Positions 1 to 59,294 of a stretch of DNA of 64,000 nt are shown piece after piece (the stretch's first letter is position 1; the number at the start of each line of letters is the position of its first letter). Source of the stretch: an uncultured archaeon (lineage in GTDB: Archaea; Nanobdellota; Nanobdellia; Pacearchaeales; GW2011-AR1). The translations under genes were made by a program, and so were the position numbers. Where the stretch lies: positions 415 through 64,414 of the forward strand of contig CAIKWG010000003.1 of assembly GCA_903831045.1 (NCBI GenBank), written 5' to 3'. The notes beneath the pieces were generated by a model, which saw nothing but the letters and a program-made list of their open reading frames with translations, did no database searches and was not told where the DNA came from.

Positions 1-251
1 TCTAGCTCCAGAAAGCAATGTTTCTAAACTCAAAGCAAAGAAGATTGATATCTTCCTAAGTCAAGCAGATGTTGTAATTCCTTTTTATTGTGGAAAAAGT
101 TTATTCACTAAAATGAAATCTTTCAAATACAATATATTCTGTAGAATTAATAATTTTCTAGGACACTATCTTACGATATTCTCTTTCTATCTAAATCCTA
201 AAAAGTTCTTGTTTCATAGATAGACTGTTTTTTTTTTTAATAGAGTTACTC

Positions 252-331
252 CCAGTCTATTAAAAAGACTCAAAATAAATTTTGGTCATTTTTTCACATG
301 GCTTTCGCCAATTTATAAAAAAGACTCACAA
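252..331. repeat. Two 24-nt direct repeats (20/24 identical) spaced 56 nt apart
   Basis: ccagtctattaaaaagactcaaaa at 252..275 and ccaatttataaaaaagactcacaa at 308..331. Confidence 0.5.
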
Positions 332-402
332 TGTCTTCGACATTATGGTCGTGTCCTCAAAGATAAATCTTCTGCGGTTTTTAATAAACTTACAAGTAAG
401 TT

Positions 403-446
403 ATTAAAAAAAAGAAAAAGAAAAAAAATAAAAAATTAAATTTTTT
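403..446 (-). terminator. Oligo-T (on minus strand) termination tract downstream of the S-layer gene
   Basis: Plus strand reads aaaaaaaagaaaaagaaaaaaaataaaaaattaaa right after the stop at 451. On the coding strand this is several consecutive T-runs, the usual archaeal termination signal. Confidence 0.5.
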
Positions 447-450
447 GGAT

Positions 451-2820
451 TTATTGTACTACTAAGTCAGCTGTAGTAGCTGTAGTTCCTTTGTAAGTCT
501 TTCCAACAGTTGTGTCAACAGTCTTAGTTCTTAAGTAAGTTGCAGCGTTTGCAGTGTCGGCTACATCGTAACCAGCAACAACAAGAGCAATCTTACCAGA
601 AGTAGCGCTAGCTACACTCTTAATTAAGAATTGACCTGCACTAACACCAGTTGCAGTTGTGAAAGCTGCACCACATGTATGTGCGGAAACACCTAAAGCT
701 GTAGCAGCAGCTGAGTTTATACAACTACCACCAACAATAATTAGGTTCTTTCCATTGAAATTACTCACTTCAGAATCTTTAGCCAATACATTTCCTAATG
801 TACTAGTTCCACTAACTGTGGCACCAGGAGAAGTTACATATACATCAGCAGTAACTTCGTCACCGTGATATAATATTTTTATGCTGTCTTGACCTGAAGT
901 AGGTTGATCCCATAAGAATTCTGTAGCTAAAGCAGAATACATGAATGATCTATAAACCTTTGTATCTCCAATCTCAAGAGCAGTAACATCTTCATTAATT
1001 AGATCTTTAACTTCTACTTCTTTAGTTGTAGAAGCATCCCATCCAACAGATACTGCAAAGTTGTCACCACTTCCAATGTTTCCATCCTTATCCTCTTCTG
1101 TAAAGTTAAGGTAGAATGTAGCATTGTTATGTCCAGCTTTTCCGTCTCCATCAGGGCTAGTAGTGAAATTAATTACACCCGGAGCAACACTATTGTTAAC
1201 AGATTGAAAAGGTAAGTAAGTTCTTAATCCTTCTTTAGAGTAAAGTTGGTAGAAATTTGTAGAAGAACTGTTTGCAGTTATTACTGCAGATTTACCAACT
1301 CTGTCTATAAATCCAACACCTAATTCGGCGTTACCCATAGAGAATGTATCACCATTCTTAGCTCCTTCTTTCTTTTTAACCCAAGCTCCATCTTTGTAAT
1401 ATTCAATATCAGTTTTGTTGTCTGATCCGTCTAATACAAAGTTTGTAGCCTTCATTAAGTAAGATTCACCTTCAGTAGTTGAAGCATATGATGCTATGAA
1501 ATAAGCATCAGTATCTTTATCGAATGTTATGCTTGATGTGTTTGAAGTACGTAACATGTTTGTTGCGTCCTTACCAATTCCACTAAATGGACCACCTTCA
1601 ACTCCGTATAAGAAGTCAATATCAGCAGCACCATCTTTTAATGGGAAATTATTCAAACTAGCATAGGATGATCCACCTTGTTCTACAGTAATTGTTTCTG
1701 TAGTTGGGTAAGTCATTCCACCATAAGACATTTTAACAATACCAAATCCTGGCATTGTTATTTCAGTATCTTCTGTAAGGAATAAATCGTCATCTGCATT
1801 CCATGCAAGCTTAATGCTTGTAAGTTTAGCAGTCGAAGTACCTAAAGCAGCAGTTGAGTTCACCATATATGCACTAACACCTGGAACGGCTTCGTCATTT
1901 ATTTGAACTTCTGAACCACTTGTAAGTTTTAATTTTCCCTTACCAATACTAAATTCAACACTACTTACTCCAGTGTCCTTAGATACATACATGATATCTT
2001 TGATACCAATATATGAACCATCACTTAATTTGTAAGTTGCGCTTTCAGCTAAACTAGAGGTAGTTTGTCCATTTACAGTTAATTTAACTTCACTGCTTCC
2101 AATGTAAGCAATTGAACATGTATAAGAAGTACCATCAACAGTTATATCAACTGTTTCTCCTTCTGTTAGAATCTTTGTTTCCGCAGAATCTAATAAAGTA
2201 AGAATTAAGTTAGCACCACTTGTACTATTTGAAAGAACATAGTAATTTTTACCCATGAATGGTATATCAGAAGTAACCAAATCTTTGATTAAAGGTTCAT
2301 CACTAAAAGTCAAAGTGTAGTTTAATACATTTGTACCTGAAGCGAATCTAAAACCAACAGTTGGTTGATCAGCAATATAGTCATTGTCTTCCCAAAGAGA
2401 TAATGCAACTGGATTCATATCGATTTTTTGAGTGTAATCAAATTCATCGTTATTACTATCAGTGTATATTCCTTCAGCAAGAAGAGTTGACAATTCACCA
2501 TCATCCAAAGTTGATTGGATTTTAGTTACATTGTCACCTAAGTAAAGCTTTGTAGATGTCTTTTCAAATTTGTAAGAGTCTCCACCACTAGTGCTAGATC
2601 CTCCAGTCTTTGGCATTGAGGCAGCAAGTGTAGTCTGGATATTTCCAGCCTGAGTTAAATCAGTTGGAGAAACACCAGCACCTGTACCATATACAATAGC
2701 CACGTCAGCTACTCCGTTCTGTACGAAGGGAGCAGGGAAACTAGCAGCTGCAGCTCCAGCAATAGTTAAACCAGCCATAAGTGTACTAGCAAAAATTGCC
2801 GAGATTTTTTTGAATTTCAT
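451..2820 (-). CDS. S-layer (surface layer) protein, secreted
   Basis: N-terminal signal peptide (MKFKKISAIFASTLMAGLTIAGAAAA). Thr/Ser/Gly-rich, low in Cys. C-terminal ...NLIIVGGSCINSAAA...KIALVVAGYDVADTANAA resembles the methanococcal S-layer C-terminal domain. Strong SD (GGAGG) 14 nt upstream and a long leader. Confidence 0.7.
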   Translation of the reverse strand: MKFKKISAIFASTLMAGLTIAGAAAASFPAPFVQNGVADVAIVYGTGAGVSPTDLTQAGNIQTTLAASMPKTGGSSTSGGDSYKFEKTSTKLYLGDNVTKIQSTLDDGELSTLLAEGIYTDSNNDEFDYTQKIDMNPVALSLWEDNDYIADQPTVGFRFASGTNVLNYTLTFSDEPLIKDLVTSDIPFMGKNYYVLSNSTSGANLILTLLDSAETKILTEGETVDITVDGTSYTCSIAYIGSSEVKLTVNGQTTSSLAESATYKLSDGSYIGIKDIMYVSKDTGVSSVEFSIGKGKLKLTSGSEVQINDEAVPGVSAYMVNSTAALGTSTAKLTSIKLAWNADDDLFLTEDTEITMPGFGIVKMSYGGMTYPTTETITVEQGGSSYASLNNFPLKDGAADIDFLYGVEGGPFSGIGKDATNMLRTSNTSSITFDKDTDAYFIASYASTTEGESYLMKATNFVLDGSDNKTDIEYYKDGAWVKKKEGAKNGDTFSMGNAELGVGFIDRVGKSAVITANSSSTNFYQLYSKEGLRTYLPFQSVNNSVAPGVINFTTSPDGDGKAGHNNATFYLNFTEEDKDGNIGSGDNFAVSVGWDASTTKEVEVKDLINEDVTALEIGDTKVYRSFMYSALATEFLWDQPTSGQDSIKILYHGDEVTADVYVTSPGATVSGTSTLGNVLAKDSEVSNFNGKNLIIVGGSCINSAAATALGVSAHTCGAAFTTATGVSAGQFLIKSVASATSGKIALVVAGYDVADTANAATYLRTKTVDTTVGKTYKGTTATTADLVVQ

Positions 2821-3080
2821 CGTTATTATTTTATCCTCCTTTCCACCTGTATACGTAGTTGCCTATGACAACCTATATTTTTTCAACCTTTAGCTATAGG
2901 GGGAGCTATCAGTCGAAAGCCTATAGGTTTAACCTAGCGTTCGTGTCCGGCAAACGCATATAAGGTAAACCCCTATAAGAGCACTCCTAAGAGTGTAATA
3001 GGAAAAGCCAGTTTTGCTTTAAAAAGATTGTTATTCATTTTTTCGGTTTGCCTTCTCTAACCCCTCATTTTATAGGGTTT

Positions 3081-3096
3081 ATTTATAAACCTTTCG
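3081..3096 (-). promoter_or_regulatory. BRE/TATA-like promoter element (CGAAAGGTTTATAAAT) for the S-layer gene, implying a ~240-nt leader
   Basis: The same CGAAAG-N-TTTATAAA motif occurs upstream of the rRNA operon and sepF. The TATA core is palindromic, so it could also serve the plus strand. Confidence 0.4.
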
Positions 3097-3198
3097 CTGT
3101 CCCCAGATGTTAGCTACATCTTTTAGACGTTTTTTCAATAAACCCAAAAATATATATATCTAAAAATGATATATATAATAAAATCAGCGAGGTAAAAA

Positions 3199-3546
3199 AT
3201 GACAAAAACCAAGTCAAGAGAGATAGTAATTAAGGAATCAAGAGGAAGCTTTGTAATTTTACCGTCGGCAAATTCTAGAGATTATGATTTTGATGGTTTG
3301 CTATCGTTGAGAAAACTACTCACAAAGGAAAAAGCTCGAATGCTAGATACAATTAAATATAAATCTCCTGGTTCAATCTATGAACTTGCTAAAATTCTCA
3401 AGCGTCCGTTCAAAGGAGTGATGGATGATATCCAACTTTTAGAGAGATTTGGCTTCATAGATCTTATAGAAGAAAGAACAAATAAAAGAATAAGGCACAA
3501 GCCCGTAATTGTTGTGGACACAATGAATATTTCAATAAAAATCTAA
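3199..3546 (+). CDS. Winged-helix DNA-binding protein (putative transcriptional regulator)
   Basis: 115 aa. The segment SIYELAKILKRPFKGVMDDIQLLERFGFIDL looks like an HTH recognition helix plus wing. SD GAGGT lies 6 nt upstream. Divergent from the S-layer gene. Confidence 0.5.
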   Translation: MTKTKSREIVIKESRGSFVILPSANSRDYDFDGLLSLRKLLTKEKARMLDTIKYKSPGSIYELAKILKRPFKGVMDDIQLLERFGFIDLIEERTNKRIRHKPVIVVDTMNISIKI

Positions 3547-3587
3547 TCCTCAATAATCTTTTTATACTCTCAAATCCAATTGACTTT

Positions 3588-4172
3588 ATGAGAAAATTAA
3601 CTAATCCTAAGGATAAGGACAAGAAGCAAAGAAGAAACCAACTTATTCTGGGGATGTTCCTTGTTTTAACCATGATGCTTAGCACTTTTGCCATAGTAAT
3701 TGATTCTCTTCAAAATAAGAACCAAAATTCAGTAAAATATAATGGTTATAAATTTGAAGCTTCAAATGGCTATTGGGCAACCACCGCAGGTCAATATCAA
3801 TTCTTCTTTAAGCTAAACCCTCTTGAAACAAAAAACTTCAGCTCATCTTTTGATAATACAACTCTAAAGCTAGTTCAAAACTACATTGGAAAACCATTGT
3901 ATCTCTATTCACAGGATTCCTATGCTTCCCAAGAGCTTGCACAGAACCTAAAACCTTTTGTGGAAAGATACCAACCAGCGTGCTTTGAAGCAACCAACTG
4001 CCCCCAGGACATCCCTATAAAGGATTGTACCAATAACTTCATCATTTACAAGATATCCAATTCAACTTCAGTTAGACAGCAAGACAACTGCGTTTTCATT
4101 GAAGGAAAGCAAGAAGACTTGGTATATCTGACTGATGAATTCTTATTTAAAATATTAGGAATAAAACAATAA
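3588..4172 (+). CDS. N-terminally membrane-anchored extracellular protein, unknown function
   Basis: One N-terminal TM (LILGMFLVLTMMLSTFAIVI). The ectodomain carries 4 Cys. The post-TM motif Y-x-G-x-KFE is shared with the next ORF. Confidence 0.55.
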   Translation: MRKLTNPKDKDKKQRRNQLILGMFLVLTMMLSTFAIVIDSLQNKNQNSVKYNGYKFEASNGYWATTAGQYQFFFKLNPLETKNFSSSFDNTTLKLVQNYIGKPLYLYSQDSYASQELAQNLKPFVERYQPACFEATNCPQDIPIKDCTNNFIIYKISNSTSVRQQDNCVFIEGKQEDLVYLTDEFLFKILGIKQ

Positions 4173-4202
4173 ATTTATAAGATAAATTAAATTAAGTTAA
4201 AA

Positions 4203-4784
4203 ATGGCAAAAGACAAATCAAATAAGATTATTAAGGGGTTCATTATAGGAATCATAACAGTTCTAATCCTAGTTATAGCAGTTTATTTTTTAATAAGCTC
4301 TCTAAGAACTCAAACCTACGAAGGAGTAAAATTTGAGACAGTGCAATTCGGACAATTAATTATGTATCAGACCGCACTCCCTTATTTCTATCAAGGAGCA
4401 TATGTTCCATATAACATTTATTTAAGAAACAGTCCTAAGAAATTAAAGAATATCGCATTCCCAGATAATTTTAGTTTAATGAAAGTTTCTGGAGCAACAA
4501 TTCCTCTAAACATGACCTGTGATGGAGATTCAACAATTGCTTTAGCAAATCTAGAGATTCTACACAATGTTATAGGTGCTGGTTGGGTAATAGATAACAA
4601 TGCAACCTGTGATGAAAGATATAATCTTTACAAGATAGTTGAAGCAGACAAAACAGAGATTGTAGAAATTTCTCCAAGATGCTATGAAGTTAGAGTAGCA
4701 AACTGTGAGATTCTTCCCGCAACAGAAAGAATAATGATAGAGATATTTGCTAAGAATGCAGAGTTAAACGCTCCTTCAAAATAA
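4203..4784 (+). CDS. N-terminally membrane-anchored extracellular protein, distant paralog of 3588..4172
   Basis: One N-terminal TM (FIIGIITVLILVIAVYFLI). Shares the YEGVKFE motif after the TM. Cys-containing ectodomain. Confidence 0.55.
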   Translation: MAKDKSNKIIKGFIIGIITVLILVIAVYFLISSLRTQTYEGVKFETVQFGQLIMYQTALPYFYQGAYVPYNIYLRNSPKKLKNIAFPDNFSLMKVSGATIPLNMTCDGDSTIALANLEILHNVIGAGWVIDNNATCDERYNLYKIVEADKTEIVEISPRCYEVRVANCEILPATERIMIEIFAKNAELNAPSK

Positions 4785-4914
4785 TTATTTTTCTTAATAG
4801 AAATAATTATTTTGCACTGTTTATGATTAATCCTTTCATATAATTAATTATTATCAAACTAAGATTGAGTGTAGAGTTAATGACGTCTTTACCAGATAGA
4901 GAATATCAAACAAT

Positions 4915-5457
4915 TCACTTTCTCTTCTTCTTAGTTCCGCTATACAAGAATTTAACATCAGAATAAAATGGAATCTCTTTTATCTTGAATATCTTTACCT
5001 GAGCAAACCAAATTCCTAGTATAAACACAGTTGTTCCAATATACCAAATAAACTTATGAGCAAAGTCAAACAGTGGAGCACCATTAATATACATCAAGCT
5101 CATGAAGAATATTCTAAGTATGTTCATAACTAAGAAAATTAAGAATCCTCCTAGAAGCATTTTCATTCTAGGTTTAATTTTAATATTTGGTGTAGCTAGA
5201 TTTAATATTAAAAGGAAGTAATATGCTGAACCAGCAATGCAAGCACCAATAATTTCTATTCTAAATTGATTAATTAAAATAGTATTAATCAATCCGCAAG
5301 AAGTACAAAATGAAGCATCAAAGAATAGTCTCAGCATCCAAAAAACAGGATACACAGTCAATGGAGAAAATATAAAATAAAATATTCCTAATCCTGGTAA
5401 AGCAGCCAAAACTAAAATTAAATATCTAACAAAAATACTTTTTAGATTATTCTTCAT
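4915..5457 (-). CDS. Compact archaeosortase/exosortase-family transpeptidase (pacearchaeosortase-like)
   Basis: 180-aa polytopic membrane protein. It has the three family signature positions in order: Cys (IIGACIAGS), Arg (VMNILRIFF) and His (FAHKFIWYIG). Confidence 0.6.
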   Translation of the reverse strand: MKNNLKSIFVRYLILVLAALPGLGIFYFIFSPLTVYPVFWMLRLFFDASFCTSCGLINTILINQFRIEIIGACIAGSAYYFLLILNLATPNIKIKPRMKMLLGGFLIFLVMNILRIFFMSLMYINGAPLFDFAHKFIWYIGTTVFILGIWFAQVKIFKIKEIPFYSDVKFLYSGTKKKRK

Positions 5458-5496
5458 AAACTAAAAAGAGAAAATAAGTTTAAATATATTTAGAAT

Positions 5497-5772
5497 CTAT
5501 GGATGATCTCTATTATCAGAATTATCCGAGTTAATTTCTCCTAGTTTCCTAGGACTCAACTGAACTAATATCTTTTCTAATAATGCTGTTTGCTTATCTG
5601 TTTCTTCTAATTGATGAAGATAAGTGCAATCTGGTACCATATCTACAAAACTCTCTCCTCTCATTATGCATCTATACTCGCCAGAATCAGACCTAATGAC
5701 CATATTATCACCAGCTTCAGAATGAAGAGGACAATTAAAACTATACTGACATCTTAAGAATTCTTCAGCCAT
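5497..5772 (-). CDS. Small Cys-containing hypothetical protein (start taken at MAEEFL)
   Basis: The ORF-track start at 5799 overlaps the upstream gene. The ATG at 5772 gives the stop-1nt-start junction typical of this contig. No family recognised. Confidence 0.45.
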   Translation of the reverse strand: MAEEFLRCQYSFNCPLHSEAGDNMVIRSDSGEYRCIMRGESFVDMVPDCTYLHQLEETDKQTALLEKILVQLSPRKLGEINSDNSDNRDHP

Positions 5773-5773
5773 T

Positions 5774-7360
5774 TTATCTTCTAGCTCTAACAGCAACAAT
5801 TACTATTGCAATAATAAGAACTACAATGAAAGCACCAAGGCTTACAAGTAACCAATTTGTTTTGATAAAATCAAACAGGTTGAACTTTGAAGATTCAATT
5901 TCAACTGCAACTGATTGTTTCATTGCAAATTCGTTGTTTGAAAGAACATCGATTGAAAAAGTTTGAGCTCCTGTAATTCCTCTCTGAACATCGAATACTA
6001 AACTAATATCTTTAGATTGTCCAGCTTCAAGGATAAATGTGCTTTCGCTAACATCTTTTAATGTTGCCCAGCTGTTAAATCCACTAGCACTAACAGCAAA
6101 CGTTACTTGTTTATCTTCAGTGTTTGTAATAGTTGTTTTAATTATAAGTTCTTTTCCAGCTCTAGCTTCTGAATCCAATGCAGCTGAAATAGCAGGATCT
6201 GAAATTTTACATCCACCATTAACATTAATAAGTAAACTTGAAACAGCTAAATCATCTTGAGAGTTTTTGAAAATATCATCATTTTCATCATAAACTTCAA
6301 CTTCTAGTTTGTAATATTTTTCTTTAATATTCTTTGGAACTGTAAATTCAAAACTAACAGTTTCACTATCGAATGCTTTAATATCTCCAATTTCTACTTT
6401 GCTGTCAATTCCTAATTCTTTATTATAAACTGTAAGATAGGTTGCATCTTGTTTAGCATCTCCAATATTTGTAACTTCAATTTGCATTGTAGTTTTAGCA
6501 CCACAATTTAAAGAAATATTAGAATCTTTTGAAACATCAACACCATTTACAATATAATTTGTAGCAATAACAAAGTCATCTCCAGTTTTTACATCAACTT
6601 GAAGATTATCTTCATCGCAAGTTTCATTGTTATCATAGGCACTATCAGAATCATCTATTGTTCCTTTAGCACTTGCATATAAAACTGCTTTTTGACCCTT
6701 AAAGTTTGCAATCTTTGAATCTAATTTAAAAGTATAAGTTATAGTTTGATCATCACCACTAGCCAAATCAATTTGGTCTATTTTTTTACTTTCGAATATT
6801 TTAACACCTGCTGTAGTGTATAGAGCAATATTAACATCTAAATTTTGCATATCCCAGTTTCCGTTGTTTTCTACAACAACATCAACACTTACTTCATCAT
6901 TAGGATACCAATAACTTTCGTCATCTCCAAATCCAGAATCAACTGTTACACTATCTATGCTAACAGATAAAGATCCAACATTTGAGCATGTATCACAATA
7001 TAATCTTGTAGCTGAAACAGTTCCAGAAGCACTTAGGCTTCCGTTTGTAGCAGTTAAAGTTGAAGTATAAGTTTTTCCAAGATTTATAGAACTTTTATCA
7101 ATAGTAATATTAACAGTCTTGGATTGAGAAGCATTTAGGTTAAATGCAGTTGTATCATAAGTTAAATCAAAAGCACCTGTATCAGTTAAAGTGATACCAG
7201 TTAAGTTTTCAGTTGCGCTAGCACTTACAACAACTTGTCCTTGTCCTGTTTTCCAGTCAACTGTTGTACTAGAAACACTTAAAGCACTAGTCATACTAGC
7301 AAATAAGAATATAGCTAACACACTTGCAATCACGAAACTTAATGTTTTTGTTTTTGTCAT
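5774..7360 (-). CDS. Secreted CARDB-like repeat surface protein with C-terminal TM plus basic tail (candidate sortase substrate)
   Basis: Signal peptide present. Repeated beta-sandwich-like modules (..VSVDVVVENNGNWDMQNLDVNIALY.., ..MQIEVTNIGDAKQDATYLTVYN..). The C-terminus ends ...FIKTNWLLVSLGAFIVVLIIAIVIVAVRARR. Confidence 0.6.
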   Translation of the reverse strand: MTKTKTLSFVIASVLAIFLFASMTSALSVSSTTVDWKTGQGQVVVSASATENLTGITLTDTGAFDLTYDTTAFNLNASQSKTVNITIDKSSINLGKTYTSTLTATNGSLSASGTVSATRLYCDTCSNVGSLSVSIDSVTVDSGFGDDESYWYPNDEVSVDVVVENNGNWDMQNLDVNIALYTTAGVKIFESKKIDQIDLASGDDQTITYTFKLDSKIANFKGQKAVLYASAKGTIDDSDSAYDNNETCDEDNLQVDVKTGDDFVIATNYIVNGVDVSKDSNISLNCGAKTTMQIEVTNIGDAKQDATYLTVYNKELGIDSKVEIGDIKAFDSETVSFEFTVPKNIKEKYYKLEVEVYDENDDIFKNSQDDLAVSSLLINVNGGCKISDPAISAALDSEARAGKELIIKTTITNTEDKQVTFAVSASGFNSWATLKDVSESTFILEAGQSKDISLVFDVQRGITGAQTFSIDVLSNNEFAMKQSVAVEIESSKFNLFDFIKTNWLLVSLGAFIVVLIIAIVIVAVRARR

Positions 7361-7484
7361 GTATTCATTCCGCAGTTACTATGGTTTATAAACATTTCTA
7401 TATTTCAGAATACATAATAATTTCCTAATAAAATACTCTTTCAAAACATTTATATAACTCTCAAACTTATTTATAGACGATAAA

Positions 7485-7877
7485 ATGGTACTAAAATCTA
7501 GAGAGAACCTGATCGGAGCATGGGCATTTGCCATAGGGATAGTGTTGGCAGTGATCATTGGAATCAGTGCAATCTCATTTTTATCCATTGATTCGGTTCT
7601 AAAATACAGCACTCAGATCTATGCAATTCTAGTAATCTTAGGGATTATAGTTGGCTTTTCAATTAGAACAAGTGGTAGAGATAACCAATCTTTCTTAATA
7701 ATAGGAGCAATTATAGTAATTGTAAGCAAATTTGGTATGGATGGAGCCTATGGCTCTTTGATAGGAATAAAGGTAGGAGAAATAGTTTCTTCAACTTTTG
7801 CAGCTCTGTTGGCACTTGCTGCTCCAGCAACAATCATTGTAGCAATCAAATCATTGTTTTCTCTGTCTAGAATTTAA
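7485..7877 (+). CDS. Small integral membrane protein (about 4 TM), unknown function
   Basis: 130 aa, hydrophobic throughout. Its 3' end overlaps the convergent dph2-like gene by 27 nt. Confidence 0.5.
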   Translation: MVLKSRENLIGAWAFAIGIVLAVIIGISAISFLSIDSVLKYSTQIYAILVILGIIVGFSIRTSGRDNQSFLIIGAIIVIVSKFGMDGAYGSLIGIKVGEIVSSTFAALLALAAPATIIVAIKSLFSLSRI

Positions 7878-8471
7878 GCTATTAATATTAATCAAATAAG
7901 TATTCTCCAAATCCATTCTAGGGCAAGCGCTATTTACCCATGATTCAAGTCCGAAGTTTTCAAATTCATGAACATTAATATCATTTGCAACAAAAATATA
8001 GATTTTCTTATCTTTAGTGTTCTTCTTAAAATCAATAGCCCTTGAAATTCTCTGTTGGCCTGGCTTTGTTGAAACCAAAACTCCTATTCTCTTTGAACTA
8101 AGATATTTCAAATAAGCTCCTTTCTCTCTTTTCTTCATTTCTTCAACTTGAGACTCTTTAATCTCCTTTAACCCACTTTCATTAAAAACATAAACCTTTA
8201 GTCCAGATTCATAGGCTAGAGCAACCGGATGAAACTCTCCTTCTCCTATTATTAGTATAGCCTTGCTTCTTTCAGAAAAACTAGGAGAACTACAGCCTAA
8301 AACCTGATTTTCATCAATAATCTTACTATTAAGATATTTTTCGACCTCTTTTGCTAGTTCTTCAAACTGAATAGAATAGCATAAAGAAATAGAATCCTCT
8401 TTAATTGAATCTAAACTTGTAAGATCAACCTTCCCAAAAATCTTTTTTGCAGCCACAAATAGTGCTTTCAT
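7851..8471 (-). CDS. dph2: Diphthamide synthase Dph2-like protein, short form lacking the N-terminal domain
   Basis: Motifs QVLGCSS, IIGEGEFHPVALA, VSTKPGQQR and NSACPRMDL match Dph2 domains 2-3. It is only 206 aa, against about 330 aa for typical archaeal Dph2. Confidence 0.6.
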   Translation of the reverse strand: MKALFVAAKKIFGKVDLTSLDSIKEDSISLCYSIQFEELAKEVEKYLNSKIIDENQVLGCSSPSFSERSKAILIIGEGEFHPVALAYESGLKVYVFNESGLKEIKESQVEEMKKREKGAYLKYLSSKRIGVLVSTKPGQQRISRAIDFKKNTKDKKIYIFVANDINVHEFENFGLESWVNSACPRMDLENTYLININSLNSRQRKQ

Positions 8472-8611
8472 AAATAATTAAGTAAAACTTTAATTTTAAA
8501 GGTTTTGATATGGAGATAAACTATCTTCTAAACAGAATTAACATTTAGATATAGAATTATTTCCTAATTTCCCCTCTAAAACTTCTTTTCCCCTATTATA
8601 AGATAAATAAT

Positions 8612-9010
8612 TTAAAAATCGTCAAAGCTTGAGTCTTCTTTCTTTGGAGCTCTTATCATAATTTCTCTGTCAATCTTTGCGAATGCAGGAGTTATGATGA
8701 TTGTACTCTCTCCAAATCCAGCAATACTACCTTCAAGAGCTTGAACAGTCTTTTTGATTTTACCAATTGCTCTCTTCAGTTCTATAGGATCTTTCTTCTT
8801 AAGAACTCTTATGTCAACAATTCCAATAGTGTAACCTTCTCTTATTGCGTTCAAAACCATGTTAGAATCTTCATAGTCTCTTAGCACGAAAAGTTTCACT
8901 ATCACCTTGTTTTCTTTCTTTTCTTGGTTTAAATCAATTTCAACGTAGTCCTCACCTGAGCTTTCGTATTTTTGATTTCCAAACATTTCTCTTAGTTTTT
9001 TTAGTGCCAT
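8612..9010 (-). CDS. sepF: Cell division protein SepF (FtsZ membrane anchor)
   Basis: 132 aa. DUF552-like core (VIVKLFVLRDYEDSNMVLNAIREGYTIGIVDIRVL...IGKIKKTVQALEGSIAGFGESTIIITP). FtsZ is encoded 3 kb away. Confidence 0.7.
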   Translation of the reverse strand: MALKKLREMFGNQKYESSGEDYVEIDLNQEKKENKVIVKLFVLRDYEDSNMVLNAIREGYTIGIVDIRVLKKKDPIELKRAIGKIKKTVQALEGSIAGFGESTIIITPAFAKIDREIMIRAPKKEDSSFDDF

Positions 9011-20382: not shown

Positions 20383-20404
20383 ATTCCTGATTTACTAAAA
20401 AAAC

Positions 20405-23215
<2,811 letters not shown>

Positions 23216-23229
23216 CCTAGTAAGGAAAA

Positions 23230-23248
23230 CCTCTCTACTACTTTTATC
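23230..23248 (-). other. 5' half of the 23S pre-rRNA processing helix
   Basis: Perfect 19-nt inverted repeat with 20364..20382. Followed by a small hairpin GTTTTCC-TTACTA-GGAAAAC. Confidence 0.7.
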
Positions 23249-23383
23249 ACTGAACATTAAGAATACCAGGATGCTCCCTAGTATTCAAATGAATATGTTC
23301 TCAAATAGATCCCGAAAACTTTTCGGAACCTGTTTTTCACATCTGAAAATTTTCAGATTTTTTTGTGAATATGATAGTGATGT

Positions 23384-23629
23384 TTAATATTCGATGATTT
23401 CTACTTTCTTATCGAGGTAATGTTCCATTCCGTGTTGAACTGTCTTTATATAATGTGAGTATGAATCTAAATAATCTGTTCCTTCTGATAAAATGTTCAT
23501 CCTTAATTTTCCTTTAATTTCATCTGAAATTTCAAATCTAATAACTTTGACTTTTTCATTTCCAATTTCATCTACTTCTAATCTTCCTTCTGATTTTCCG
23601 TCAATTATTATTTCTAAATTTTTTTTCAT
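23384..23629 (-). CDS. Hypothetical 81-aa protein encoded inside the 16S-23S spacer (between tRNA-Ala and 23S)
   Basis: Clean ATG-to-TAA ORF. Its AT-rich, Lys/Glu/Ile-rich composition matches the other CDSs and not the rRNA. A weak AGGA lies upstream. Confidence 0.5.
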   Translation of the reverse strand: MKKNLEIIIDGKSEGRLEVDEIGNEKVKVIRFEISDEIKGKLRMNILSEGTDYLDSYSHYIKTVQHGMEHYLDKKVEIIEY

Positions 23630-23665
23630 TTTGTTTTTCCTTTAATTTAATTAGAAAAAATTCAA

Positions 23666-23736
23666 TGGACCCGCCGAGAATCGAACTCGGATCTCATGCG
23701 TGCAAGGCAAGTGTTCTACCATTGGACTACGGGCCC
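23666..23736 (-). tRNA. tRNA-Ala (anticodon UGC) in the rRNA spacer
   Basis: Acceptor GGGCCCG/CGGGTCC including the G3:U70 Ala identity pair. Anticodon loop CTTGCAC. T-arm CCGAG-TTCGATT-CTCGG. Confidence 0.85.
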
Positions 23737-23841
23737 ATAACGCCTTCGAGCGTCCATAAAAAAAGCCCGTGGCCTTATATAATTTTTTCTAATAAGATGA
23801 GTATGTAGAAACAGAGTCATAACGAACATTGTAAAAATATT

Positions 23842-25289
23842 AGGAGGTGATCCATCTGCAGGTTCCCCTACAGATACCTTGTGACGACTTAACCTACCTC
23901 ATCATGCTAAGGTTCTCCTCATAAGAGTTTCACCATAGTATAACTCGGTTGGTTTGACGGGCAGTGTGTGCAAGAGACAGTGACATATTCACCGGACGTT
24001 GATAACATCCGATTACTACGAATTCCAGTGTCATGAAGCTGAGTTACAAGCTTCAATCTAGACTAAGATAGACTTTAAGAGATTGGCTTCACCTTTCGGT
24101 GTTGCATCCCATTGTATCTACCATTGACGCGCGCGTGTTGCCCAGGGGATTAGGGCTGTACTCACCTAACGTAGCCCGTACTTTCATCCTGGTTACCCAG
24201 GCAATCTGTATATTGTACACTTAGTAAATATACACACGGGTCTTGTCTGTTACCTGATTTAACAGGTCACCTCACGGCACAGACTGACGTCGGCCATGCA
24301 ACTCCGCTCAGCGTGTCAGGTAAGCCCTTTAGACTGACCTTCATCCTGCTGTCGCTCCTGGTGAGGTTCACGGTGTGGAATCTAATTGAACCGCACGCGT
24401 CACTCGTTGTAGTGTCTCCCCGCCAATTCCTTTAAGTTTCGGCCTTGCGACTATACTTCCCAGGTAGCACACTCTCCGGCTTCCCTTCAGCACCAATACC
24501 TCTCGAAGAGGTACTAATGTTTAGTGTGCAGTGTTTACTGCTAGGACTACACGGGTATCTAATCCGTTTTGCGCCCCTAGCCTTCATCCCTTACTGTCAG
24601 AACTGTTCTCGGAAGATGCCTTCGCTATTGTGAGTCCGTTTAAGATTAACGCATTTTACCGCTACTTTAAACGTACTTCTTCCGTCTACCAGTCTCTAGC
24701 TTGGTAGTACTTCCCGCGCGCCCTACATTTGAGATATAGGATTTCACAAGAAACTTATCAAGCAAGCTACGGATGTTTTAGACCCAATAAAAATGGCTGC
24801 GACTTGGACCGCGGGTATTACCGCGGCGGCTGGCACCCGTCTTACCCAGTCCTTATTCGCCAAACTTTTTACATTTGGCAAAAGCATTCCATATTGGAAC
24901 GCACTTTGACTCAAACTGTCACACTTTCGTGTATTGCAGATGATTCCTAACTGCTGCACCCCGTAGGGCTGGGAATAGTGTCTAAGATTCCCTCTCAGGG
25001 CCTCTCCGCTAAGAGCCCTTACGGATCATCGGCTTGGTGGGCTATTACCCCGCCAACAACCTAATCCGCCGCAGCCCCATCCTTAAGCGCGAGTTTGAGA
25101 GATAAGTCATTCCAGGGCATATCTCCTATCAAGCGTTAACCTCAGTTTCCCGAGGATATTCTTGACTTAAGGGCAGGTTAGCTACGTGTTACTGAGCAGT
25201 TCGCCTTCTCACTTTCGAAAAAGAAAGAAAAACTTGCATGTCTAAGCGCAAGTCAAAGAGCCGCAGCCGCCAGCAGGATCAACTGGAAT
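23842..25289 (-). rRNA. rrs: 16S ribosomal RNA (about 1.45 kb)
   Basis: The reverse complement starts ATTCCAGTTGATCCTGCTGG and ends GGGGAACCTGCAGATGGATCACCTCCT. It contains GTGCCAGCCGCCGCGGTAATACC. Confidence 0.95.
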
Positions 25290-56234: not shown

Positions 56235-59200
56235 TTATGGTTTAGTTTGTTTATTAACTTTTTGCCCAATATTTGCTTTCTTGTTTAATTGAACCTGAGC
56301 AACAATGGTTCCAATAGGATAGAGGAAGAGTAGCAACAAAAAGGCACCTACTTTTCCAAATTTAGTAATATCCTCTAAAGCGTTTGAGTATTTGATGTAT
56401 CCAATTATTAAAACCACAGCGCAAACTATTATTATTCCGGGTGCAACAAATGAAGGAATATATTGACTAAGATAAATTCCTCTTAGACTAAACCAATAAA
56501 ATATAGCAATAACTAGAGAAAACATTAAATTTGGTAAGAGCAATAATATAAATCTTGGAGCTTTCTTTGTAATCTTTCTTAATTCATGTGAACTAATAAA
56601 TAACCAGATTATCCAGTATAATCCTAGAGTAATTATTCCTAAAAATACATGCCAGAATATGCTTCTTCTTTTGATTCCTTTATTGAATTGAACTGGTTGA
56701 CCATTTGCTTCTTTAACAGCTTCAGCTTTTCCTGGTTTCCACATTCCAGTATTTTTACCAAGATATTTTCTCATTACATATCTAATTTGCTCTGTAGACC
56801 ATTTAGCCTTTCTCAGTTTATCTCTAATCTCTTCTTCTGGAACTCCAGAAGTTTTTTGATTGTTAATATAAGTGATTAGATTGTACAGATTATTTCTATT
56901 CGGAAATAAACTATGTTCATATTTTTTATCATACCATCTATGCAGAACTACATATACTATTATGCCGATTATAATTACCACTGCAAATAAAATAGCTAAT
57001 ATCCACCAAGGAGTTGGTTCTGGTTCTGTTATATCCACTCCCAGATTAGGTAAGCTTGACATTACTGGAGAAATGAATAATGGAAGGCCAACAAAATCGA
57101 TATCTTCTGTTGTGGAAAAACTAATTGAGGTTTTATCATTAATCTTAACATAATAAAAACCATTACCCTTAGAAACAGGAGTGCTAAATTGTAATCCTGC
57201 TAAATCTTCCACAATTAAATAAACATTCTCTTCAAGAGGAGCTTTTGGAGTAAATGTCAAACTAAAAGTTTTTGTAAATGGAACTAAATCTGAACCATAC
57301 TTGTAATCGGTTTCTTTCATAGAAACCTTTGTGTCTAAATTTAACTGATTCCAGGATAAAATACCGTCGATATATTTGGTAGAATTTGCTGGATCGTATC
57401 TTTCTCCAGTTATATTAGATAAATAGGCTAAATTGATGTCCCCTTTTTCTGAATAATAGGAAATAGAATTTGTTGAAGTTTGAATTATTCCTTCTGGTAA
57501 CTCAAGAGCATTTAATGCATTAACTATTGTCAGATAGTCGCTTTCATTTGTTGCTTTATTAAAATATGATTTCAATGCATTTATTTGGCTTTCAACATAA
57601 GTTAAATTCAAATCTTCACTAATCTTAAGACTATTAAATGAATCAAAATTTGAAAGTTGAGTTTTAATTGTTGCTAGGTTTCTTTCCAGTTCTATCAAAG
57701 TGGCATTGCCAGTTTCTTTAGCAGATTGAACAGATACTGTAAATGTTTTAGAAAATATTCCTCCCTCTCGTGTTTCAATTCCAACCATCAACTGGTGATT
57801 TCCTCCTTCAAGGTAAGAATAACTAATCTGATTTGCAACTGTCTCTCTAGTTTTATTTTCTCCTTCAAATAGCCAAGCATATTTTATTGGAGTACTATCT
57901 GAAAGGAAGTTAACCTTGAAAACTGTAACGGAAGCAATTGGAACTCGTGTTGGAGTTAGTGTCATTGAAACATTTTTAATCTGTAACTTTTCATTCATTA
58001 AACTAGTTCCATTTAGATTCATTGTGTAAGAAATATTTCCTAATCTTGATGGAAGTTTGAAAAAATCATCAATAAAAAAATATTGATAACCAGAATTTAT
58101 TTTGGATGGAACTTTTTCAAGAATATTAAACTTATTATCTTCTATCCCTGGTAAATCCTGTTGATCATATTTTATTGAAAAATTTCTAAGAGTAATGTTC
58201 TGGGGAGCATTGGCACTTACTCTTATTGGAACATAGCATCCATTTGTACAGTCATTTGAACCATAACGTGAATAAATGTAATAGCTTGCTAGAAATGCAA
58301 GGTCTTCTCCACTGGTTGAGCCACCAATTAAATTTAAAGAGCCAACAGACCCAAACTTTTTTGGTTTTGCGAAAATATCATAGGCTGCAGTTCCATTCTT
58401 AATTGGAAGTCCAGAGAATCCGCAACCATTTGTAAGAGAATGACCTTTAGTTTTATATTCTCCTCCAGTTCCTTCTGAATATAAACAAACATAATACTCT
58501 CCTGCATCTGAAGTTAGATAATCCACTCCGCATGAAACTTCTCCACCTGAGCTAGTTATGTTAGTCTTGTTAATTGCACAATCAGCAACTTCAACTCCAT
58601 ATTTAGTATACATATTCATTTTAATCTTACTTGCTCCGAGGCTCTTCTCTACAACCCAAGCTCCAAGTTGATATCCAGGAGCTTCACTCAGATTAATCTT
58701 CTGACATAATGGATTAGAGGTGATTGCTAATTCAACATCACTAGCTGAAGCATTATAGCATCCAGTGTAATTTCCTCCAGAACAAACTGCACTTGAAGTT
58801 TTACTATTTGAAAATTCATAACTATCATCATCCAAAATATCTACCTTTAATTGATTATCACAGTTTTCTCCAGCACTACTGTCAATATTAAAATTTATTG
58901 AGTTTATGCTATCAAGAATTCCTCTAAATTCTATACCAAATGTAATACTCTCTCCTTTAGCAAGACTATAAGTTTTTGAACTCAATTTTTCTTGAGATTT
59001 ATAATTGTCTCCGCAGCCAACAACATCGCAACTAAAAATATAATTCTTATTTTTAGAATTATTTAATAATTGAAATAAACTAACATTGTTCCCTTGATTA
59101 TCCTTGAATTGTTCTTCAAGAGATTGATTCTGGAAGCTTATATTCATATATCCAGTTAAATAGGAGCCAGGACCATAGGTTTTTATTATTGTAACATTTC

Positions 59201-59294
59201 CTTTGCCCAAACTAAAGCTAGCAGAAGTAAAAGATATCATTACAATTAATAAAATAGAAAATAAAAAAATTGCATTTGCATTAGACTTTCTCAT
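56235..59294 (-). CDS. Large surface protein: signal peptide, ~740-aa ectodomain, TM, cytoplasmic linker and a C-terminal DUF4234-like multi-TM module
   Basis: SD GAGGTGAT upstream. Mid-protein TM WWILAILFAVVIIIGIIVYVVL. The C-terminal FLGIITLGLYWIIWLF motif is typical of DUF4234. Confidence 0.6.
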   Translation of the reverse strand: MRKSNANAIFLFSILLIVMISFTSASFSLGKGNVTIIKTYGPGSYLTGYMNISFQNQSLEEQFKDNQGNNVSLFQLLNNSKNKNYIFSCDVVGCGDNYKSQEKLSSKTYSLAKGESITFGIEFRGILDSINSINFNIDSSAGENCDNQLKVDILDDDSYEFSNSKTSSAVCSGGNYTGCYNASASDVELAITSNPLCQKINLSEAPGYQLGAWVVEKSLGASKIKMNMYTKYGVEVADCAINKTNITSSGGEVSCGVDYLTSDAGEYYVCLYSEGTGGEYKTKGHSLTNGCGFSGLPIKNGTAAYDIFAKPKKFGSVGSLNLIGGSTSGEDLAFLASYYIYSRYGSNDCTNGCYVPIRVSANAPQNITLRNFSIKYDQQDLPGIEDNKFNILEKVPSKINSGYQYFFIDDFFKLPSRLGNISYTMNLNGTSLMNEKLQIKNVSMTLTPTRVPIASVTVFKVNFLSDSTPIKYAWLFEGENKTRETVANQISYSYLEGGNHQLMVGIETREGGIFSKTFTVSVQSAKETGNATLIELERNLATIKTQLSNFDSFNSLKISEDLNLTYVESQINALKSYFNKATNESDYLTIVNALNALELPEGIIQTSTNSISYYSEKGDINLAYLSNITGERYDPANSTKYIDGILSWNQLNLDTKVSMKETDYKYGSDLVPFTKTFSLTFTPKAPLEENVYLIVEDLAGLQFSTPVSKGNGFYYVKINDKTSISFSTTEDIDFVGLPLFISPVMSSLPNLGVDITEPEPTPWWILAILFAVVIIIGIIVYVVLHRWYDKKYEHSLFPNRNNLYNLITYINNQKTSGVPEEEIRDKLRKAKWSTEQIRYVMRKYLGKNTGMWKPGKAEAVKEANGQPVQFNKGIKRRSIFWHVFLGIITLGLYWIIWLFISSHELRKITKKAPRFILLLLPNLMFSLVIAIFYWFSLRGIYLSQYIPSFVAPGIIIVCAVVLIIGYIKYSNALEDITKFGKVGAFLLLLFLYPIGTIVAQVQLNKKANIGQKVNKQTKP

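Follow-up and report, generated by a model that had tools for sequence, protein, structure and literature searches.

Among archaeosortases, the mechanism has been studied by experiment only in ArtA. The Haloferax enzyme is the precedent for cleavage plus lipidation of the substrate and for a Cys/Arg/His triad, and whether ArtA itself performs the lipidation is unresolved (PMC6098224; bioRxiv 10.1101/2023.06.07.544157). Between one and 52 ArtA substrates are found per genome, and in a 2018 review archaeosortases are described for part of the Euryarchaeota only (PMC6098224). A pairing logic based on one adjacent target with conserved residues in its transmembrane (TM) helix has been described for JDVT-CTERM and the myxosortase MrtJ (bioRxiv 10.1101/2023.06.07.544157). 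Closest of all to the locus described here are two NCBIfam models, NF033505 ("pacearchaeosortase") and NF033506 ("PACE-CTERM-PROT, putative S-layer protein"). Our literature search on pacearchaeosortase, PACE-CTERM and paceosortase found no paper on the family and no experiment; one review treats archaeosortases and Pacearchaeota, separately.

We have analyzed a 64-kb stretch of DNA (the window). It carries an archaeal rRNA operon (SSU/LSU) and, on the basis of these archaeal rRNA genes and of the labels of the nearest genome loci, its host is a freshwater Pacearchaeota-type DPANN archaeon. With a probability of roughly 80%, the window carries a dedicated NCBI-curated sorting pair, a pacearchaeosortase and a PACE-CTERM protein, with one enzyme acting on one substrate. 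The two genes are an ordinary member of an already known, catalogued Pacearchaeota gene pair. The features of the locus are collected in Table 1.

Table 1 Coordinates of the putative sorting pair and of neighbouring features in the window
Feature	Position	Strand	Basis
Anchorless S_layer_C-type protein	451..2820		PF05124, 38.3 bits
Neighbour gene, ~190 aa	3588..4172	plus	present in 65/81 loci
Neighbour gene, ~190 aa	4203..4784	plus	present in 73/81 loci
Pacearchaeosortase, 180 aa	4915..5457	minus	NF033505 and TIGR04178 matches
Intergenic stretch with AT-rich TATA-like box TTTAAA	5458..5496	minus	read by eye
Four-Cys ORF, 91 aa, cytoplasmic-looking	5497..5772	minus	ORF reading, comparison with close relatives
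PACE-CTERM protein, 528 aa, secreted, CARDB/Ig-like multi-domain	5774..7360	minus	NF033506, Pfam CARDB
Putative C-terminal sorting region of the 528-aa protein	5777..5869	minus	tail HMM, alignment, motif counts
Predicted Sec-type signal peptide (MTKTKTLSFVIASVLAIFLFASMTSALS...) of the 528-aa protein	7280..7360	minus	read from translation

The enzyme and its neighbouring surface protein

The three minus-strand ORFs, the motifs and the C-terminal tails are present where the preliminary description had placed them, with one tail quotation corrected (see below). The archaeosortase HMM search that it had proposed gave scores above the cutoffs for the 180-aa protein, both with NF033505 (216.9 bits, cutoff 80; residues 7-173 over positions 3-164 of the 167 of the model) and with the exosortase/archaeosortase signature TIGR04178 (29.4 bits, cutoff 23; residues 68-155 over positions 2-93 of 97). 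The 528-aa neighbour matched NF033506 with 378.7 bits (cutoff 110; residues 23-527 over positions 111-625 of 627). With NCBIfam E-values of 1.7e-64 and 5.8e-113, respectively, the match signal of enzyme and surface protein is far above chance. Given these matches, the system is already curated by NCBI and the GenBank proteins are already named, so the earlier idea that the recognition signal might be new had to be abandoned. As a finding the pair has little weight, since an automatic run of the NCBI annotation pipeline would suffice to name both genes.

The ordered Cys, Arg and His residues on which the family assignment had first been proposed were confirmed. The motifs GACIAGS, NILR and FAHKF start at residues 71, 112 and 132 of the enzyme, and the proposed catalytic residues Cys73, Arg115 and His134 (the only His of the protein) were invariant in the 18 sequences of one alignment and in a wider set of 104 homologs. 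The 180-aa protein is thus a predicted polytopic membrane cysteine protease of the exosortase/archaeosortase family, with this Cys/Arg/His set as putative catalytic triad. Its AF2 model (pLDDT 80.3) has five long helices (2-19, 24-45, 76-87, 94-124 and 130-156) and a hairpin, and the hydropathy segments likewise agree with a polytopic protein, whose topology is tentative in the N-terminal third. In this model Cys73 and His134 would lie on the outer side, opposite the basic loops 88-99 and 157-180. A search of PDB sequences with the enzyme profile found nothing at E<=10, and Foldseek comparison of the AF2 model against PDB gave no match with E below 2, so we found no solved homologous fold for the enzyme. 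The Pfam family PF09721 (Exosortase_EpsH) did not match the window enzyme at E<=1; a precomputed match exists in a few relatives.

At least 738 homologs of the enzyme were found, and those named by NCBI are all called pacearchaeosortase. Among GTDB species-representative genomes, 462 matching stretches encode a relative, and nearly all of the 80 that were kept are labelled Pacearchaeota, Woesearchaeota or Nanoarchaeota. The enzymes of the window subclade (identity >=67%) share a 5-residue CxxC insertion in loop 48-58 that is unique among the 104 enzymes. In the window enzyme the two residues are Cys51 and Cys54, located in a predicted beta-hairpin loop and common to the close relatives.

The 528-aa protein also passes the Pfam CARDB model (25.4 bits, cutoff 22.7), and its predicted signal peptide has, by eye, a basic n-region, a hydrophobic core and an A-x-A-like site. 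Its exact C-terminal end is FIKTNWLLVSLGAFIVVLIIAIVIVAVRARR, which can be divided into a juxtamembrane FIKTNW, a TM helix of ~22 residues and a basic RARR end (...WLLVSLGAFIVVLIIAIVIVAV-RARR). When the window sequence was left out in building a tail HMM, the HMM still matched this tail with E=1e-10. The basic end is found in all of the 74 family tails, the [IL]TG motif (usually as GITG) in 40 of the 74 and an intramembrane Asn in about 90%; the window tail has neither of these last two. From the typical family collar NWYLWGIG (NWYLWGIGxLN in most relatives) the window tail retains N-W alone. Within its subclade the tails conserve F-I-[KRQ]-x-N-W, and the variant tail is also found in the relatives L081 and L122. 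No conserved Cys was found in the PACE tails examined. On sequence similarity, the window tail is a variant homologous to the family tail.

Conservation of the gene pair and its surroundings

In 74 of the 81 loci (the 80 genome loci plus the window) the enzyme gene is directly preceded, on its own strand, by a gene for a homolog of the surface protein; the gap is 21-103 bp in 22 of those 74. In the window the surface protein gene ends 316 bp upstream of the enzyme gene, also on the same strand. The DNA between both genes may consist of nothing, a small ORF, a gene for a PAP2 lipid phosphatase (37/80 genome loci and 17/36 metagenome loci) or up to 3.6 kb, and order and strand are kept. The NF033506 match together with this same-strand adjacency makes the 528-aa protein the likely substrate of the enzyme, as had been proposed for the CARDB-like neighbour in the preliminary description. 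The pairing of enzyme and target is inferred from the same one-target adjacency logic applied to JDVT-CTERM and MrtJ.

We also searched with the tail HMM ~0.9 Mb of flanking DNA plus the 64-kb window and found no convincing unrelated protein (the best other match had E=0.021). Metagenomes scanned by the tail alone yielded 36 loci, in which the 33 assessable tails were all located on the protein family of the 528-aa protein. The enzyme gene follows the tail in 27 of the 28 metagenome loci that extend far enough, and 8 of the other 9 contigs end first. As 16 consensus-like tails served as seed for the scan, and not the full 61-tail alignment, it favours tails of the predominant NWYLWGIG type. 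At one locus, L117, a canonical tail is found and no enzyme lies within 4 kb; there, the enzyme and both ~190-aa neighbour genes are missing together. Taken together, these searches predict that the enzyme has the 528-aa protein as its sole substrate. The surroundings are also syntenic across these small genomes, including SepF, diphthamide synthase, a 130-aa membrane protein and the two ~190-aa genes, and adjacency by itself therefore counts for less than it would in shuffled genomes.

The proteins encoded by the two ~190-aa genes, which are convergent with the enzyme gene, have an N-terminal anchor and Cys residues and matched no Pfam or NCBIfam family. Pairwise comparison gave a weak match (E=0.001) that covered only the N-terminal anchor and so did not establish them as paralogs. 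The S_layer_C-type gene is located 2 kb from the pair.

The small ORF between both genes has 100 aa if a TTG is taken as the start (5497..5799) and 91 aa if the start is the ATG at position 5772. It has four conserved Cys (8, 14, 35 and 49) and a conserved C-terminal helix, and no Pfam or NCBIfam family matched it. A phmmer search of the 80 genome loci found nothing at E<=1e-3, and the relatives were found by reading the gap between enzyme and surface protein genes in close relatives. Homologs are restricted to two of these, L083 (55% identity) and L085 (45%), while L025 matches weakly (29% in the alignment; E=0.001 by pairwise BLASTP). The ORF is frameshifted in L081 and L082 and absent from L084 and L122. 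It had been pointed out earlier as a Cys-containing ORF between enzyme and substrate, and it does exist there, but as a conserved part of the system it fails, being broken or deleted in close relatives. By this comparison, it is a lineage-specific, dispensable insert outside the sorting system.

By eye, the enzyme gene and the surface protein gene each have their own TATA-like box, so that the operon-like block of the preliminary description need not be an operon. That of the enzyme, TTTAAA, is ~21 nt from the ATG and is also found in L081, a relative with 77% identity. This spacing would fit a separate leaderless transcript of the enzyme, for which, in a window genome of 31% GC, it is weak evidence. 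Metatranscriptome and metagenome contigs covering positions 1..9000 gave a depth of 0-7 at the locus, and an A-rich stretch near 400-440 drew thousands of unrelated contigs.

Proposed sorting mechanism and alternative explanations

Cleavage, cleavage site and lipid acceptor are here extrapolated from a distant subfamily, Haloferax ArtA with its PGF-CTERM S-layer glycoprotein. By this analogy, the surface protein would be exported by Sec, after which its C-terminal helix would retain it in the membrane for a short time. There the enzyme, itself embedded in the membrane, would recognize this helix together with the aromatic collar located just outside (FIKTNW in the window protein). Attack by Cys73 near the outer membrane face would remove the helix and the RARR tail, and the new C-terminus would then probably be transferred to a membrane lipid. 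The 91-aa ORF and the 989-aa surface protein discussed below would stand outside this one-to-one system.

The enzyme might also be a protease only, with the surface protein clipped and then either released or kept non-covalently, for example via an S_layer_C-type protein, and no lipid involved. The second, anchorless S-layer-type protein of the window would suit this possibility, as would the unsettled role of ArtA itself in lipidation (PMC6098224; bioRxiv 10.1101/2023.06.07.544157) and the gene content, as there is no lipid-related gene at the locus and no PAP2 gene in the 64 kb of the window. We regard it as unlikely, given that a transpeptidase would be expected to have just this Cys/Arg/His triad (bioRxiv 10.1101/2023.06.07.544157) and that the intervening PAP2 gene of many relatives is a hint of lipid chemistry. 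Less probable still is that the helix is a permanent type-I anchor and the enzyme acts elsewhere, their adjacency being just a gene order that became fixed in the streamlined genomes of DPANN archaea. The synteny of the flanking genes, the separate TATA-like boxes and a window tail devoid of the commonest family motifs all speak for a permanent anchor. However, gene order and strand are kept despite the widely varying intervening DNA, the conservation of the tails, including the Asn within the helix, exceeds what a passive anchor needs, and neither the flanks and window nor the metagenome scan provided another tail-bearing candidate substrate. Furthermore, the variants of enzyme loop and tail change together in the clade of the window.

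The preliminary description had gone further and taken a 989-aa protein (59406..62375) as another substrate, on the basis of a motif, F-[IT]-x-[TV]-N, shared with the 528-aa protein; the enzyme would then process both and perhaps others. Both proteins do end in a TM helix plus basic cluster with an Asn near the helix start, but this type of end is generic, because a third protein (56235..59294) has one as well. The string quoted as the end of the 989-aa protein (GFTWVN...IDKKKK) is present, but it is not terminal, stopping at residue 976 with 13 further residues (AKHKTSDSKKKRK) after it, and this tail has no Trp after the Asn. The shared motif was found in only one of the 74 family tails, that of the window itself. 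Moreover, the 989-aa protein gave no match with the family tail HMM when the filters were switched off (--max) and matches up to E<=10 were allowed, nor with NF033506, and every metagenome tail recovered by sequence belongs to the one family of the 528-aa protein. It was rejected as a second substrate on these grounds, and one-to-many sorting, already largely refuted, is very improbable.

Returning to the dedicated one-to-one pair, the system of the freshwater subclade could be a variant shaped by co-evolution, with PAP2 as the mark of a lipid-donor step, a joint reading that we put forward only tentatively and consider rather doubtful. The subclade enzyme may have gained an extracytoplasmic CxxC loop and the tail may have lost [IL]TG and the intramembrane Asn and kept F-I-K-x-N-W. 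If so, recognition in the family would be set by the outer loop of the enzyme and the juxtamembrane collar. The PAP2 gene located between the pair in nearly half of the relatives could mark the lipid-donor step of an archaeosortase-type anchoring. These organisms are commonly regarded as incapable of a lipid synthesis of their own.

With neither a published description nor a solved fold found, such a small one-to-one system is a convenient minimal pair to ask how exosortase-type enzymes recognize a TM signal and whether they attach the lipid themselves. Two handles on these questions are offered by the PAP2 gene that recurs next to the pair and by the variants of enzyme loop and tail that change together.

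Comparison with known systems

With ArtA and PGF-CTERM the window pair shares the TIGR04178 signature, the conserved Cys/Arg/His and, as substrate, a major surface protein with C-terminal TM helix and basic cluster. The window enzyme is ~120 residues shorter than ArtA, no ArtA-subfamily model was among its NCBIfam matches at E<=1 and there is no PGF motif in the tail of the surface protein. ArtA serves several substrates in some genomes, whereas the window enzyme has one adjacent substrate. The size of about half ArtA, pointed out in the preliminary description, is not unusual: the NCBIfam models of ArtD (TIGR04175), XrtH (TIGR04177), XrtX and XrtY have 150-168 positions. These minimal enzymes have a weak similarity to the window enzyme in the catalytic core, and its scores are far below the subfamily cutoffs (ArtD 17.6 vs 125, XrtH 21.1 vs 86 and XrtX 25.4 vs 170 bits). 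Their cognate signals also differ from the PACE tail; ArtD, for instance, pairs with VPXXXP-CTERM. JDVT-CTERM and MrtJ are similar in having one target per genome beside its enzyme and conserved residues inside the TM helix. However, the MrtJ enzyme family is unrelated (Rce1/CPBP-type, versus exosortase-type here) and the JDVT-CTERM signature motif has an invariant Cys, not conserved in PACE tails.

From the norm of NF033505/NF033506 the window pair departs together with its subclade, by the CxxC insertion of the enzyme and by a tail with neither [IL]TG nor the intramembrane Asn. It agrees with that norm in other respects, both proteins being far above the cutoffs over nearly the full model length, with the gene order that is the norm in the family and relatives labelled Pacearchaeota. 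Of the archaeosortase systems seen here, none is smaller or more strictly one-to-one than this family, which uncultured DPANN archaea carry widely.

A named enzyme family and its predicted fold

The 180-aa protein matches nearly the whole NCBIfam model NF033505 "pacearchaeosortase" (216.9 bits, E=1.7e-64, cutoff 80) and, at 29.4 bits, clears the cutoff of 23 for TIGR04178, the broader exosortase/archaeosortase signature, while it stays far under the cutoffs of other subfamily models (ArtD 17.6 bits against 125, XrtH 21.1 against 86, XrtX 25.4 against 170); no ArtA-subfamily model is among its NCBIfam matches. The 528-aa protein is recognised by NF033506, "PACE-CTERM-PROT, putative S-layer protein" (378.7 bits, E=5.8e-113, cutoff 110), and also passes the Pfam CARDB cutoff. 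The core of the preliminary description, an archaeosortase-family enzyme with an adjacent substrate, was therefore right and held in the HMM search, and its novelty was not, since the pair is already curated under its own names. The system is thus known as a database family, and the literature searched contained neither a description of it nor a mention of the two family names. A 2018 review describes archaeosortases as present in a subset of Euryarchaeota (PMC6098224). The enzyme has at least 738 homologs in the protein collection, called pacearchaeosortase wherever NCBI gives a name, and 462 matching stretches of GTDB species-representative genomes encode a relative; the 80 stretches that we kept are labelled nearly all as Pacearchaeota, Woesearchaeota or Nanoarchaeota.

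The motif strings first noticed in the enzyme were all found (GACIAGS from residue 71, NILR from 112, FAHKF from 132), as was the C-terminus of the 528-aa protein exactly as quoted, confirming that observation. These motifs give Cys73, Arg115 and His134, the last being the sole histidine of the enzyme, and this triad does not vary across 18 diverse homologs, nor across the 104 enzymes taken from the genome and metagenome loci. Further invariant positions are Y12, Y27, T34, G76, R97, N112, W138, W150, P163 and D167. An AlphaFold2 model built from the 18-sequence alignment (pLDDT 80.3, pTM 0.73) has helices at residues 2-19, 24-45, 76-87, 94-124 and 130-156, a C-terminal helix at 165-177 and a beta-hairpin at 48-68; no solved structure resembles the enzyme in sequence or fold searches. 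The most basic segments, 88-99 (4 K/R) and 157-180 (8 K/R), would be cytoplasmic by the positive-inside rule; for the part beyond residue 45 only, Cys73, His134 and the hairpin would then lie on the outer side and Arg115 within helix 4. The small size, remarked on before, is unexceptional at about 180 aa, as the ArtD, XrtH, XrtX and XrtY models span 150-168 positions.

Positions of the features discussed (window positions unless a relative's locus is named)
Feature	Position	Strand	Remark
A-rich low-complexity stretch	about 400..440
789-aa secreted protein	451..2820	-	S_layer_C
S_layer_C protein, relative L081	7503-9887
S_layer_C protein, relative L117	5035-7533
First ~190-aa protein	3588..4172	+
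Second ~190-aa protein	4203..4784	+
180-aa hydrophobic protein (enzyme)	4915..5457	-	ORF reading
CxxC-containing 5-residue insertion (FCTSCG), enzyme residues 50-54	5296..5310	-	predicted outer hairpin loop
Small ORF, 100 aa from TTG or 91 aa from ATG at 5772	5497..5799	-	ORF reading
528-aa protein (predicted substrate)	5774..7360	-	ORF reading
130-aa polytopic membrane protein	7485..7877	+
rRNA operon	20396..25289	-
Third protein with C-terminal helix and basic end	56235..59294
989-aa protein	59406..62375	-
454-aa protein	62461..63825	-
PAP2 gene, relative L001	7299-7925	-	opposite strand to the pair
PAP2 gene, relative L086 (metagenome)	4148-4765		opposite strand to the pair

The gene pair and the DNA that separates it

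We compared the 80 genome loci and the window (81 loci). In 74 of them the enzyme gene is preceded, on its own strand, by a gene for a homolog of the 528-aa protein, and contig ends cut most of the others. The spacing between both genes falls in three classes: an empty gap of 21-103 bp (22 loci), a gap of about 260-500 bp (the class of the window) occupied by a single short, unrelated ORF on the same strand, and one of about 600-1100 bp or more that contains a gene of about 205 aa on the opposite strand. This last gene encodes a lipid phosphatase of the PAP2 superfamily (PF01569, 74.1 bits). It separates substrate and enzyme genes in close to half of the relatives, with 37 of 80 genome loci and 17 of 36 metagenome loci, and the whole 64-kb window has none. 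The two main genes keep their order and their strand despite this turnover, which argues for a functional link between enzyme and surface protein beyond frozen synteny, although the wider neighbourhood is syntenic too, so that adjacency by itself weighs less as evidence. The ~190-aa neighbour genes adjoin the enzyme gene in 65/81 (first) and 73/81 (second) loci and the 130-aa membrane protein gene is conserved in 56/81, the window counted in each.

The small Cys ORF in the window, whose ATG immediately follows the stop codon of the upstream gene, had been noted before between enzyme and substrate. It has no family match and no match at E<=1e-3 in the 80 genome loci; its relatives were identified by reading the substrate-enzyme gap in close relatives. 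L083, with an enzyme 96% identical to that of the window, has a 76-aa homolog only 55% identical, L085 (enzyme 80%) one of 95 aa and 45% identity, and the more distant L025 a weak match (pairwise E=0.001). The ORF is broken by a stop and indels in L081 and L082 (enzyme 77%), and absent from L084 (82%, 32 bp gap) and L122 (67%, 30 bp gap), so its relevance to the system was not sustained. The copies share four Cys and, at the C-terminus, a helix (YLHQLE.EDKQTALLEKIL), and the ORF probably encodes a genuine small protein, which may bind metal. By these comparisons it is fast-evolving, dispensable and outside the conserved system.

The putative sorting tail and its carriers

The family tail has the consensus ...GF.GITG......NWYLWGIGxLNVILVIIIIIVAVRVARK, with no invariant short extracellular motif; the positions conserved at 90% or more (one Asn and three aliphatic residues) sit in the helix. 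A basic end is present in 74/74 tails, [IL]TG in 40/74 and N-W in 30/74. The window tail matches a profile of the 73 others at E=1e-10, so it is homologous, but as a variant that keeps N-W and has neither [IL]TG nor the intramembrane Asn. The recognition motif F-[IT]-x-[TV]-N proposed in the preliminary description occurs as written in just 1/74 tails, but it did point to a real clade-level juxtamembrane element, F-I-[KR]-x-N-W, common to close relatives of the window (L081 FIRTNW, L122 FIKDNW); more distant loci have FIQNNW (L025) and FIKANW (L067). Among the 104 enzymes compared only that of the window carries a pair of Cys in its hairpin loop, and a CxxC loop is common to its close relatives (enzymes P0004 FCQAC and P0010 FCGDC, locus L122 FCESC). 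The lineages with the CxxC loop are those whose substrate tails have the F-I-K-x-N-W variant, a co-occurrence in a single clade which suggests that enzyme loop and juxtamembrane segment may evolve together.

The 989-aa protein, proposed before as a second substrate, was not reported by the tail profile with all filters off at E<=10 and has no NF033506 match. The string quoted for its end is present but stops at residue 976, and 13 residues (AKHKTSDSKKKRK) come after. It has four acidic repeats rich in cysteine (TIGR02232 myxo_disulf_rpt, 119.7 bits; DUF4215) and ends in a TM helix and a long Lys-rich tail, not of PACE type; a C-terminal helix with a basic end is a generic feature, found also on a third protein of the window. 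Each locus carries one tail family, and over the roughly 0.9 Mb of DNA that flanks the loci in the 80 genomes, the best match outside it had E=0.021. As an independent search, the tail by itself was run against metagenome contigs (patterns NWYLW[GL]IG and LN[VIF][IVL]L..., which favour the main tail type) and gave 36 loci. Of these, 33 reach far enough upstream to be judged, and in each of them the protein that bears the tail is homologous in its body to the same family; the enzyme gene follows in 27/36, the contig ending first in 8 of the other 9. The one true exception is locus L117, where the enzyme and both ~190-aa neighbours are jointly missing between the substrate gene and an HVO_A0114-like gene. 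Over these locus flanks and contigs, and with the main tail type favoured, tails confined to one protein family and followed by the enzyme fit the pattern of a dedicated one-to-one system in the sense of bioRxiv 10.1101/2023.06.07.544157.

Proposed processing and the host cell surface

By analogy with Haloferax ArtA, the surface protein would be exported by Sec and held transiently in the membrane by its C-terminal helix, Cys73 would attack near the outer face, the helix and RARR would be taken off and the new C-terminus probably transferred to a lipid. One-step lipidation by archaeosortases is undecided even for ArtA (PMC6098224; bioRxiv 10.1101/2023.06.07.544157), so an enzyme that acts as a protease only stays a live alternative to this cleavage and transfer. 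TATA-like boxes lie 21-24 nt upstream of the ATG of both substrate and enzyme genes and would fit separate leaderless transcripts, with little weight given to such boxes at 31% GC.

The window is archaeal, with a complete archaeal rRNA operon (LSU, spacer tRNA, SSU) that accounts for a GC rise to 0.40-0.42 over a background of about 31%, and with neighbours typical of archaea (L11, L37ae, prefoldin, SepF, diphthamide synthase). Near-identical DNA was found in lake-water and freshwater metagenomes. An apparent depth of up to 57,000 at the A-rich stretch, where unrelated metagenome and metatranscriptome contigs aligned in their thousands, was rejected as an expression signal, being an alignment artefact of low complexity. 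Close to the enzyme gene, the two ~190-aa proteins contain Cys and N-terminal anchors, their family being unassigned, and the 130-aa membrane protein, also without an assigned family, is encoded on the other strand, upstream of the substrate gene. In addition, the end domain of the 454-aa protein matches Por_Secre_tail, a sorting domain of the bacterial T9SS (TIGR04183, 35.7 bits, cutoff 23), with Pfam PF18962 under its cutoff (24.6 bits); the protein also has a weak dockerin match just short of the threshold (22.7 bits against 22.9).

What is new is modest: in this freshwater clade, the variant form of CxxC loop and tail, and in relatives, a PAP2 gene that recurs between the genes for substrate and enzyme. 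The 789-aa secreted protein lacks a C-terminal anchor and scores above the cutoff of Pfam S_layer_C (PF05124, 38.3 bits against 23.9), and its position ~2 kb from the sortase locus is kept in relatives. The genome thus has two S-layer-type candidates, one anchored (PACE-CTERM) and one not, reminiscent of the two-subunit SlaA/SlaB layout.
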